64,000 nt of DNA from Chloroflexota bacterium (lineage in GTDB: Bacteria; Chloroflexota; UBA11872; VXOZ01), in the NCBI GenBank assembly GCA_963663275.1, contig OY760183.1:1664001-1728000 (forward strand), written 5' to 3'. The first letter of the stretch is position 1; each line of letters opens with the position of its first letter. This document shows positions 1-3,797 of this stretch, piece after piece. A program made the translations under genes and the position numbers. The notes beneath the pieces were generated by a model. The model worked only from the letters and a program-made list of their open reading frames with translations, made no database searches and had not been told where the DNA came from.

Positions 1-201
1 CAGGGAGAGGGGATTCGTGGGAACGCGCCCAGCCCTCATCTCGATCCTCTCCCTCAGGGAGAGGGGACAAAGGGAGGGAGCGGGGACGCGCACAGTCGAA
101 CGACAGGTGAGGATACTCGCCTTGGCTCTCTCCCTCAGGGTGAGGGGATTCAAGGGAACACACTCAATCCTCTTCTTGGTCATCTCTCTGAGAGAGAGGG
201 G
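1..201 (+). repeat. Degenerate copies of the CCCTCACCC...CCCTCTCCC-N-GGGAGAGGG palindromic repeat inside the dGTPase frame
   Basis: cagggagagggg (1-12), ccctcatctcgatcctctccctcagggagagggg (33-66), ctctccctcagggtgagggg (~128-147), ctctctgagagagaggggg (~184-202). Confidence 0.8.
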
Positions 202-990
202 GCTGTTGCAGGGAACGAGATGAAGGCGTGCTACGCCGAGGATGCGCCGTTGCTTGCGTGGATTTGCGAGAGAGGCTCGTTGGAGGAGCGGTCGTTCGAG
301 TGCCAAATCATGGATTGGGCCGACGACGTGGCGTATTCGGCGCACGATCTGGAAGACGGCATCAACGTGGGCATGATCAGCGTGCAGAACCTGCGGCGTC
401 CGGCCAACCAGGAGGCGGTCGCGCGGCGCGTGCAGGCGGGCGCGGCGGAGCGGGGGCGCTCGTGGTCGGAGGCGGACGTGGTGCGAGAACTCGACTGGCT
501 GGCGGCGCGCCTGAGCGAGTTGGAAGGCCTGCCGACGCCGCGCCACGCCCGGGCGGCATTGAAGGACTTGACCTCGCGCCTGATCAACGAATTCGTGCGC
601 TGCGCTCAAGGCGCGCCCCGGCTGGGTTGGACGGAAGGCCTATCGGAACGCTACCGCTACGGCTTGATGGTGCCCGAAGCGCAGGAACGGCGCTGCGAGG
701 TGCTGAAGCAGGTGGCGTTTGTGCTGGTGTTCGCGGAGCCGCGCGTGACGACGCTGGCGCATCGCGCGCACCACATGGTGGAGCGGCTGTTCGCGGTATT
801 CCAGGCGGAGGAGAACGCGGCGATGTATCCCTTTGAGTTTCAAGACCAGTTTACGGGCGCGCGCAACGGCGCGGCGCGCATGAGGGTGGCCTGCGACTAC
901 ATCGCCTCTATGACGGATTTCCAGGCCGAACGCGCCTACCAGCGCCTTTTCGTGCCCGGTTACGAGAGCATTCTGGATCCGTTAGTGTAG
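1..990 (+). CDS. dgt: dGTP triphosphohydrolase (HD family), 5'-partial; frame open from base 1 through repeat-derived sequence
   Basis: ECQIMDWADDVAYSAHDLEDG and C-terminal RVACDYIASMTD motifs. Frame 1 has no stop from 1 to 987, so the ATG at 220 is probably internal. Confidence 0.85.
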   Translation, partial: QGEGIRGNAPSPHLDPLPQGEGTKGGSGDAHSRTTGEDTRLGSLPQGEGIQGNTLNPLLGHLSEREGAVAGNEMKACYAEDAPLLAWICERGSLEERSFECQIMDWADDVAYSAHDLEDGINVGMISVQNLRRPANQEAVARRVQAGAAERGRSWSEADVVRELDWLAARLSELEGLPTPRHARAALKDLTSRLINEFVRCAQGAPRLGWTEGLSERYRYGLMVPEAQERRCEVLKQVAFVLVFAEPRVTTLAHRAHHMVERLFAVFQAEENAAMYPFEFQDQFTGARNGAARMRVACDYIASMTDFQAERAYQRLFVPGYESILDPLV

Positions 991-1048: not shown

Positions 1049-1202
1049 CGTCAGGTGTAGGGGCACGACATGTCGTGCCCCTACACCTGACGTCCGGCCC
1101 CTTTACAACGTTGTTGAATTGCGTAGGGGCGGTTCGCGAACCGTCCCCACGGCGCACGGTGAATCACAATCCCGGTAGGGGCGGTTCGCGAACCGCCCCT
1201 AC
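1049..1202. repeat. Cluster of three GTAG-type REP palindromes between convergent genes
   Basis: Perfect 44-bp palindrome 1049-1092 (core GTAGGGGCACGACATGTCGTGCCCCTAC); GTAGGGGCGGTTCGCGAACCGCCCCTAC at 1175-1202 and a 2-mismatch copy from 1123. Confidence 0.9.
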
Positions 1203-2620: not shown

Positions 2621-2766
2621 CCCTCACCCTAACCCTCTCCCCCGGGGAGAGGGGATGAAGGCTGCTTTCTTTGCGAGTTTCCCCTCACCCTAGCCCTCTC
2701 CCCGGGGAGAGGGAATGGAAACCGTCGCCTTTGGGAGTTCCCCCTCACCCTAACCCTCTCCCTCGG
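2621..2766 (+). repeat. Three tandem CCCTCACCCTAACCCTCTCCC-N-GGGAGAGGG repeats, the third split by a MITE
   Basis: Copies at ~2621, ~2682 and ~2742, about 60 bp apart. Confidence 0.9.
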
Positions 2767-2786: not shown

Positions 2787-3797
2787 TCATTCCGGCGAAA
2801 GCCGGAAGGTGGATTCACATTTCAAGTGCAACACCTGGTTGATGAATACTTCGGCTGGCGTTTGGAAGTCAAGACACTTGCGCGGGGTGTGGTTGTAGGC
2901 GTGGACCAGTTGCGCAAAGCGTTGTTGGCTCACCTGTGCCAGGTCGGTCTTGCGCGGCAGCCGGCGCCGCAGGCGGCCGATGGCGTTCTCGATGCCCCCT
3001 TTCTGCCAGGGCGAGTGGGTATCGCAGAAGAAGGTTTGGATGCCCAAGTCATGGAGGCGGTAATGCTGTGCGAACTCCGTGCCATTGTCGAACGTGACGG
3101 TCTGGCTGCACGCTGGGGGCAGCGCGGCGAACAGGTCGTGCAGGATAGTGGCGATCGGCGCTGCCGCCTTGCCGGGCGGTCGCGCGGCCAGCAACAGGCG
3201 CGAGTGGCGCTCGTGCAGGGTCAAGACTGCTTGACCGTAGGTGCGAAAGAGCATCAGGTCCGCCTCCCAGTGGCCGGGCGTTTGGCGGTCTGCCGCCGCC
3301 TGGGGCCGTTCTGCCAGCGGTCGGCGCTGGGCAATGAACGAGGCCGGACTGCCGCCCTTTCGCCCGCGCCAGCCCCGTTTGGACTTGGCGCGCGGCAGGT
3401 AATGCCGCCAGTTACCGTCCTTCGTGCGCGCCTGCTGCCCGTAGATGAAGCGATAGATGGTCTCGTGAGAGACGACCGGCGCGCCGTTCTCCCGCGCCAA
3501 ACGTCCGGATACCTGCTCCGGCGACCAACAATCCCGCAAGTATCCCAACACCACCTCCCGCAACTCGGCATCCCGCTCCAGCTTGCTGCCGCGCCAGCAC
3601 CGCGCCCACGCCTGATCATCGGCATACTTTGGCTCATAGCCTGCCGATTGCGATCCATTTCGTTTCACCTCCCGCGAAATCGTCGATGGCGCGCGACCCA
3701 GAGTTGCAGCGATTTGCCGGTGCGAGGTTCTCGCGGTGAGAAGTCGGGCAATTTCACACCGCTCTTCAATGGTAAGTTGTGTGTATTGTTTTCCCAT
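2787..3797 (-). CDS. IS30-family transposase
   Basis: N-terminal HTH (STISREVKRN), WSPEQ, SHETIY, GHWEAD, TFDNGTEF, WQKGGIEN, PRKCL (DDE intact). Confidence 0.95.
   Translation of the reverse strand: MGKQYTQLTIEERCEIARLLTARTSHRQIAATLGRAPSTISREVKRNGSQSAGYEPKYADDQAWARCWRGSKLERDAELREVVLGYLRDCWSPEQVSGRLARENGAPVVSHETIYRFIYGQQARTKDGNWRHYLPRAKSKRGWRGRKGGSPASFIAQRRPLAERPQAAADRQTPGHWEADLMLFRTYGQAVLTLHERHSRLLLAARPPGKAAAPIATILHDLFAALPPACSQTVTFDNGTEFAQHYRLHDLGIQTFFCDTHSPWQKGGIENAIGRLRRRLPRKTDLAQVSQQRFAQLVHAYNHTPRKCLDFQTPAEVFINQVLHLKCESTFRLSPE

Follow-up and report, generated by a model that had tools for sequence, protein, structure and literature searches.

A BoxC/TM hairpin array read in frame inside a Chloroflexota dGTPase gene, probably as a tolerated passenger loop

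Introduction

The stretch of DNA analysed here, 64,000 nt in length and hereafter called the window, covers positions 1,664,001 to 1,728,000 of contig OY760183.1 (G000:C1:1664001-1728000) in the genome of a Chloroflexota bacterium (GCA_963663275.1; a single contig of 3.53 Mb, designated G000). It opens within a gene for a dGTPase, and the first bases of the window encode, in the frame of that gene, a series of small palindromic repeats that otherwise lie between genes. An earlier interpretation of the letters alone (the sequence-only reading) had proposed that repeat-derived peptide was added to a surface loop of the enzyme and is being domesticated as protein sequence. Here we follow up that proposal by comparison with relatives, structure prediction, independent contigs and a census of the repeat family.

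Results

Frame 1 is open from window base 1 to a TAG stop at 988-990, and its translation is exactly the peptide that the sequence-only reading had quoted. With 1.5 kb of upstream DNA from the same genome added (locus L001, in which window base 1 is position 1501), the gene proves to be one continuous open reading frame (ORF) of 506 codons, L001 970-2490, with a GTG start 531 bases upstream of the window; its 3' part, 329 codons and the stop, occupies window 1..990 on the plus strand. No stop or frameshift lies between the GTG start and window base 990. Along the ORF follow the HD motif HDIGHPPFGH, the segment LKYKALY, the repeat peptides and the HD_assoc domain, and a single frame thus leads back from the repeats through the LKYK and HD motifs, with none of the upstream breaks that would mark a pseudogene.

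The ORF list, the TIGR01353 profile, Pfam and Foldseek all bear on the identity of the product. TIGR01353 scores 321.3 bits against a curated cutoff of 152.35, and Pfam finds HD at aa 60-109 (E 6.7e-13) and HD_assoc at aa 400-492 (E 5.9e-18; approximately window 667-945), these being the only Pfam domains in the 506-aa protein, with no intein or Hint domain. The conserved C-terminal enzyme part, which begins at KACYAED (window 223..987, plus strand), was delimited by its identity to congeners, 79-84% over query residues 249/251-506. H63, H92, D93 and D148, the metal-binding motif H...HD...D of the HD family, are invariant columns in an alignment of 62 sequences, and the protein keeps every invariant column of that alignment, as it does by definition (for example D285, Y289, H292, D293, D296, R472 and D476). 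The best solved relatives are 7lwz, 9p8w and 2dqb; HMMER aligns them up to residue ~159 and again from ~273, leaving the middle unmatched. AlphaFold2, run with the 62-sequence alignment, gave a mean predicted local distance difference test score (pLDDT) of 83.2 and a predicted template-modelling score of 0.82, with most 10-residue core blocks at 90 or above, while residues 169-249 fall below 50 and are predicted to be disordered. The top Foldseek matches of this model are dGTPases (7lwz, E 2.4e-21, target-normalised TM 0.80-0.83; 2dqb, 0.75-0.79), and structure prediction, one of the checks proposed for the loop, thus returns a confident dGTPase core with a disordered insert. By profile and predicted fold, the gene at window 1-990 encodes a dGTPase, or deoxynucleoside triphosphate (dNTP) triphosphohydrolase, of the TIGR01353 subfamily. 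It is the sole dGTPase match in the genome, and its 506-aa product is presumably made and active.

Comparison with relatives defines the insert sharply. We searched 41 genomes (G000 included), among which 14 of the 16 congeners gave an orthologue; the other two, G012 (97% complete) and G014 (69% complete), gave none with this query. Cut out and aligned from the common start, all 14 same-genus orthologues are exactly 419 aa long and lack the segment. Against these 14, the N-terminal match stops at residue 157-159 and the C-terminal match resumes at 249-251, only a few bases later in the congeners. The congener loop reads LKYKA[IL]H-GSRPGLR-K[SF]CYAED, and the 7 residues between the hyphens are replaced by 94 in G000, an in-frame net gain of 87 aa or 261 nt; the sequence-only reading was right that repeat-derived sequence had been added, and too low in its estimate of "at least 70 aa". 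Protein and DNA alignments with the 14 congeners place the insert region, 282 nt and aa 158-251, at window -59..222 on the plus strand, with 1..222 visible in the window.

The site had also been correctly located in a variable loop after a KYP-type motif, here LKYK. In the 62-sequence alignment, the loop from K154 to Y255 spans 100 aa in G000, 82 aa in P0002 (a separately deposited protein) and 11-21 aa in the 60 others. The insert is missing from 60 of the 61 other aligned homologues and from 9 close database relatives besides P0002, and a search with the whole insert against 5.8 billion proteins returned P0002 as the only related sequence among 318 candidates. The alignments confirm a true insertion of an otherwise intergenic repeat into this naturally variable loop. 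As for the marks of a MITE, namely terminal inverted repeats and a target-site duplication, no such inverted repeats bound the 282-nt block. The motif AAGGCG stands just outside both edges, although six bases may recur by chance, and the native loop was apparently replaced, not duplicated.

The insert holds four hairpin units, all read on the plus strand, and this agrees with the "at least 3-4" decayed copies first noticed; units 1-3 match a family found throughout the genome. Unit 1 (window -21..12, its 3' arm at 1..12) is a full three-block BoxC/TM unit of type A, CCCTCACCC-TAA-CCCTCTCCC-TCA-GGGAGAGGG, read as NPHPNPLPQGEG. It carries all three blocks and the TTA loop (TAA on the coding strand), and units 2-4 keep the hairpin alone. 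Unit 2 (window 46..66), CCTCTCCC-TCA-GGGAGAGGGG, has a perfect stem and a decayed head block and is read as PLPQGEG; unit 3 (window 128..147), CTCTCCC-TCA-GGGTGAGGGG, has one stem mismatch and is read as SLPQGEG; and unit 4 (window 183..202), TCTCTC-TGA-GAGAGAGGGGG, is a decayed hairpin read as HLSEREG. The number of high-scoring segment pairs (HSPs) elsewhere in the genome falls along the array, from about 200-290 for unit 1 through about 130-150 for unit 2 and about 40 for unit 3 to 0 for unit 4. A gap-free alignment of units 1-2 with units 3-4 extends over 74 nt, with an identity of about 76% by eye count. Unit 4 is recognisable only because of this alignment, as a diverged duplicate of unit 2, and the array therefore consists of two copies of a two-hairpin unit, since diverged, on either side of a 60-nt spacer. 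In blastn-short searches of the genome, this spacer, the other spacers and the flanks had no significant match elsewhere, giving a few 15-20-nt matches at E 0.05-0.75. The encoded loop is rich in Pro, Gly and Glu. Exceptional RNA structure can be rejected, as the minimum free energy of the insert (-134.5 kcal/mol) falls within the spread seen for coding windows of equal length from this gene (mean -126, minimum -138).

The BoxC/PIT/TM motif, earlier named BoxC/PIT, forms an intrastrand triplex in vitro, as seen by circular dichroism and nuclear magnetic resonance on an E. coli sequence (Holder et al., 2015; PMC4666352). There TM is described as three consecutive 9-nt blocks on the G-rich strand, CCCTCTCCC, GGGAGAGGG and GGGTGAGGG, joined by short loops (TTA in type A, CCG in type B); it has been reported from over 260 genomes and linked to local instability of the genome (PMC4666352). 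Compared by eye with Table 1 of the same source, unit 1 in reverse complement is identical over 33 nt to E. coli TM no. 17, of type A. Judged by its letters, the inserted repeat is the BoxC/PIT/TM motif. The type B equivalent in G000 is CCCTCACCC-CGG-CCC, present in the MoeA, phosphatase and methylase copies described below.

In G000 this family is abundant. Its 21-nt head signature occurs 163+169 = 332 times, against 0 for a reversed-pattern control; nhmmer gave 253 repeat matches; and a regular expression gave 300 hairpin cores, grouped into 232 clusters of one (178), two (44), three (7), four (2) or five (1) hairpins, with six further hairpin clusters in the window itself. Two intergenic arrays, at 362,577-362,660 and 1,473,393-1,473,483, match unit 1, spacer and unit 2 at 78-80% over 84-91 nt with equal spacing, so that the insert has the appearance of any other array in G000. 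A direct donor was not among the sequences searched: blastn-short gave no non-self HSP of at least 45 nt in G000, and a permissive search of G000 and the 16 congeners found no donor array, the best hits being 79-91-nt, 77-80% matches to unit 1, spacer and unit 2 in G000 arrays. Single-unit matches were present in 15 of the 16 congeners in the permissive search. Across the phylum, 89 of the 301 genomes sampled carry the head signature (87 of 299 if two unpublished genomes are left out), and the G000 count is the highest among the genomes listed in that sample. Its distribution is patchy, with matches in 56 of 171 genera and counts from 1 to more than 300 per genome. In sequence, the signature does not differ from the E. 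coli element, and one may ask what keeps a motif this short conserved between phyla.

No cognate transposase or other mobilising enzyme of the inserted family was found in G000. The only RAYT gene (NF047646, 95.9 bits against a cutoff of 80) lies at G000:C1:~382948-383439 (L039 1399-1890) and is flanked on both sides, in inverted orientation, by GTAG-tagged hairpins of the GTAGCGCGGGGGCTCGTCCCCCGC type, with an IS4-like transposase-like ORF just upstream. A RAYT gene between inverted repetitive extragenic palindromes (REPs) is the classic RAYT/REP arrangement. Mobilisation of the insert as a RAYT-dependent REP or REPIN was rejected, the sole RAYT being flanked by this different GTAG hairpin and the inserted units being untagged.

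Contigs from four sequencing runs of three studies (X1-X4; X1 is possibly the source sample and was not counted as independent) were aligned to L001 900-2600, and both junctions are covered by contigs from all three studies. The 5' flank of the insert, unique in the genome, is joined without a break to the N-terminal half of the gene in X1 record 1 (0 differences), X2 record 9 and X4 record 24. Unit 2 through the 3' junction is contiguous in X2 record 14, and unit 4 with the 3' flank is joined to the C-terminal half in X1 record 8 (0 differences), X2 record 14 and X3 record 19, with junction coverage also from X3 record 16. None of the X1-X4 contigs contains a clean joint that skips the insert. 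An X4 joint that "skips 208" (side 25, depth 4.7) and a joint skipping 1,117 nt (side 20) were put down to cross-matching between repeats.

P0002 is 488 aa long, 97% identical over aligned columns, and carries the same insert minus 18 aa. The missing 18 aa (54 nt) correspond exactly to one unit between two PLPQGEG repeats. P0002 comes from a 1,733-nt contig, and its three-unit form may be an assembly collapse and not a polymorphism, because X2 record 14, which has P0002-type variants, starts at L001 1520, inside the stretch that P0002 lacks.

A second insert-bearing strain, that of X2, allows selection since the insertion to be read directly. In this strain, the core codons show 28 synonymous against 4 non-synonymous changes among the 36 differences listed, and the four (A106V, S109A, R268K and G390D) are all shared with P0002. 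With most changes synonymous, purifying selection has continued to act on the enzyme after the insertion. Pairwise dN/dS between G000 and the congeners is 0.07-0.14 over 419 shared codons, and among the congeners it averages 0.066 (range 0.041-0.103), with dS near saturation. The loop has fared differently: between G000 and P0002, 6 of the 76 aligned insert residues have changed, against 9 of 412 outside the insert (Fisher p = 0.018), a rate of protein change about 3.6 times higher in the insert. Three of the six frames are stop-free across the 282 nt of the insert, and 282-nt windows centred on 53 other multi-hairpin arrays have a mean of 0.55 open frames of 6, with none open in 32 of the 53. 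Because other arrays are so seldom open, the open frame in the dGTPase is a product of selection, and its simplest cause is that a stop would remove the essential C-terminal half. Neither the P0002 comparison nor the array null gave evidence of constraint on the peptide itself. The faster change, the possible whole-unit variation and the want of predicted structure are signs of relaxed constraint on the insert, and we infer that the loop is functionally neutral.

The dGTPase is not the only gene in G000 that reads the repeat in frame. In a census, hairpin clusters within open frames were screened by codon-position GC and by Pfam, and at least seven further Pfam-supported genes carry in-frame units. 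UvrA (G000:C1:1162512-1165982; L050) carries four near-perfect 45-nt tandem units SPHPGSLPEGEGEEA at aa 284-336, read as PHPNPLPRGEG and then three SPHPGSLP[ER]GEGEEA copies, between the UvrA_inter and UvrA_DNA-bind domains; a second uvrA-like gene, at about 3,467,179-3,468,111, has no insert. MoeA (G000:C1:2931183-2932748; L060) carries two units in opposite orientations, SPSPQPSPPGEG ... SPSPWGEGRGEG, inside the MoCF_biosynth domain at aa ~355-395. Two units are also present in an LCP-family protein (G000:C1:3352160-3353671). Single units occur in a PduO-type adenosyltransferase (Cob_adeno_trans; G000:C1:3253924-3254577), in a metallophosphatase about 1.5 kb upstream of the dGTPase (G000:C1:1660583-1662580), and in two Eco57I-type methyltransferases (G000:C1:1186601-1190374 and G000:C1:2485903-2490147). 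In frames where the type A loop would give TAA or TAG, the genic copies are stop-free variants with CAA or CGG loops.

In each of the 11 congeners searched, the UvrA site carries an insert, and in out-of-genus relatives it carries none. The MoeA site is occupied in all 10 matching congeners (11 searched), with inserts that vary, and out-of-genus relatives lack about 53 aa there. At the UvrA site, five congeners (G004, G010, G007, G011 and G001; L065-L069) carry in-frame arrays of other families, MDSRFRGNDG... and RHSRESGNPS..., of about 60 aa (G011) to about 345 aa (G010). This suggests that some protein loops, such as the UvrA site, are recurrent landing pads for several families of hairpin repeats.

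Other candidates from the census were set aside. Twenty of 25 other open frames of at least 280 aa with the repeat lacked any Pfam domain at E<=1e-5 and were taken to be non-coding; one of these, at 3,254,148, was recovered in another frame as the Cob_adeno_trans gene. The repeat in the L064 frame was assigned instead to the LCP gene of the other strand, the candidates at 860,836-860,932 and 3,287,008 had a non-coding look on translation, and that at 1,154,136 was judged non-coding by eye.

Just 3' of the dGTPase stop stand three GTAG-tagged REP-type hairpins, GTAGGGGC...GCCCCTAC, at window 1057-1084, 1123-1150 and 1175-1202, of a family different from the insert, followed by a convergent Gfo/Idh/MocA-like gene on the minus strand (window 2304 down to 1216, that is 1216-2304). 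Farther on, a 336-aa ORF on the minus strand (window 2787-3797) has the look of an IS30-family transposase and is adjoined by repeat arrays, including one at window 2633-2713.

Discussion

The best reading of this locus, to which we give a probability of about 85%, is that a BoxC/TM array has become a tolerated in-frame passenger loop in a dGTPase that is still under selection. On this reading, a small array of BoxC/TM hairpins would have landed in the DNA for a short, naturally variable surface loop of the enzyme, in an ancestor of the G000 strain and its one known close relative, after their split from the 14 congeners. The array would have been stop-free in the frame of the gene, with a net length that was a multiple of three, and read-through would then have added a disordered loop of about 90 residues. 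Evolution afterwards may have been near-neutral, the two-hairpin unit duplicating and diverging and unit 4 decaying, and a 54-nt unit was possibly gained or lost by slippage or recombination between direct repeats.

Several points weigh against this reading. The best NCBIfam equivalog, NF002829, scores 376.5, just below its cutoff of 385, and its match is split in two by the insert. The solved relatives are deposited with six or eight chains per entry, and an insertion of 87 aa could disturb the assembly of such an oligomer. The count of 28 to 4 covers the 36 X2 differences listed, with 64 further entries, from all runs, outside it; the G000 branch is long (0.124), and its dN/dS lies slightly above the among-congener mean. 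Selection on the open frame alone cannot separate an enzyme that is kept from a peptide that is kept. Finally, no single short-read contig spans all four units, the contigs breaking at units 1 and 2.

The most substantial alternative is the domestication that the sequence-only reading had put forward, namely that the loop has acquired a function of its own, for instance in regulation, in the binding of a partner or in control of the oligomer, for which selection retains it as protein sequence. Retention of the open frame in two diverged strains would fit this, as would the closed state of most other arrays. Moreover, half of the eight host genes with in-frame units work on DNA or nucleotides (the dGTPase, UvrA and the two methyltransferases), which echoes a bias described for intragenic REPs (PMC3733652). 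However, selection on the downstream half of the enzyme explains the open frame equally, and a peptide with a job of its own is hard to reconcile with protein change about 3.6 times that of the core, a possible difference of a whole 18-aa unit, predicted disorder, and absence from 14 of 14 congeners and all aligned homologues but P0002. We therefore consider domestication quite unlikely, and the earlier wording, "being domesticated", is not borne out.

The gene might also be functionally dead or dying, its enzyme crippled by the insertion and its frame open only through recency. The long terminal branch of G000 could be taken in this sense, and the 97%-complete G012, having no detectable orthologue, hints that the gene is perhaps dispensable. 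Yet the core changes that followed the insertion are mostly synonymous among the differences listed, the invariant residues are all kept in what is the only dGTPase match of the genome, and the array is not new: its two halves have diverged by about 24% and it is still stop-free. A dying gene is, in our view, very improbable.

That the array was mis-joined into the gene during assembly is hardly credible, even though repeats are classic sites of mis-assembly and the short-read contigs do break within this one, for the unique flanks of the insert are contiguous with the core in contigs from three studies and P0002 has the same insert; the suspicion of an assembly chimera at the repeat can thus be laid aside. 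We found no point in support of removal of the segment before the mature protein, in the manner of an intein or intron, and we give it practically no credence, Pfam finding no intein or Hint domain and the segment consisting of ordinary intergenic repeat units.

The locus offers a clean and dated case of selfish intergenic DNA turned into protein sequence, missing in 14 sister species and present in two diverged strains. Such inserts may also have a practical cost: because they split profile matches and push scores below equivalog cutoffs, annotation pipelines may mislabel the genes that carry them.

A broader role can be imagined, although we regard it as unlikely. Perhaps, in this genus, BoxC/TM and other hairpin repeats are a standing source of length-variable disordered loops that prefer DNA- or nucleotide-handling proteins, and the loops behave as contingency-like loci that tune dNTP pools, repair and mutation rate. 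The unit lengths, 54 nt in the dGTPase and 45 nt in UvrA, are divisible by three, so that on this idea arrays could grow and shrink in frame. Di Nocera et al. speculated on a similar tuning for REP-tagged repair genes (PMC3733652).

Comparison with known systems

The repeat family of the insert shares with the known BoxC/TM elements the three-block sequence, both types A and B, and a multi-copy, widely distributed habit. It differs in setting and scale: E. coli K-12 has 23 TM copies that are "always located intergenically" according to Holder et al. (PMC4666352), whereas in G000 the head signature is present 332 times, arrays reach five hairpins, and the repeat is read in frame at no fewer than eight sites within genes. 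The terms "intragenic", "in-frame" and "within genes" do not occur in the text of that paper (PMC4666352), and a literature search that combined BoxC, PIT or intrastrand triplex with intragenic or in-frame found nothing relevant.

The tandem hairpin arrays at gene ends, and the presence of a RAYT gene, also recall the REP/BIME elements of E. coli with their RAYT, but the hairpins on either side of the G000 RAYT are of the GTAGCGCGGGGG... type and do not belong to the inserted family.

The closest precedents lie among repeats of other families. Intragenic GTAG/CGTC REPs lie wholly inside the ORFs of known proteins in several phyla, in frame and often as dimers or clusters (Di Nocera, De Gregorio and Rocco, 2013; PMC3733652). 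The intragenic clusters reported there encode 43-82 aa, uvrA was hit repeatedly (in Opitutus terrae and Thioalkalivibrio), and a location in linkers or loops was argued (PMC3733652). The dGTPase insert resembles them as a small, otherwise intergenic palindromic repeat that is read in frame inside a known protein and placed in a loop. It differs in that it lacks the GTAG/CGTC tag and belongs to another family, BoxC/TM, and its gain of 87 aa reaches or exceeds the upper end of the published sizes.

The Rickettsia palindromic elements (RPEs), to which the sequence-only reading had aptly likened the insert, are palindromic repeats found in frame in many unrelated housekeeping genes and judged compatible with fold and function (Ogata et al., as described in PMC10969869 and PMC3733652). 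An in-frame palindromic repeat inside protein genes is common to both. RPEs, however, are about 150 bp long and belong to Rickettsia-specific families in AT-rich, reduced genomes, whereas the present case consists of arrays of 20-34-nt, GC-rich hairpins in a free-standing 3.5-Mb Chloroflexota genome. In-frame insertions of REPs and RPEs are thus already documented; what is new here is the BoxC/TM family, the phylum Chloroflexota, the size of the loop, and the direct view of purifying selection after the insertion. The dGTPase of G000 thereby extends the phenomenon of RPEs and intragenic REPs to the BoxC/TM triplex repeats, strictly intergenic in E. coli K-12, and to the Chloroflexota.

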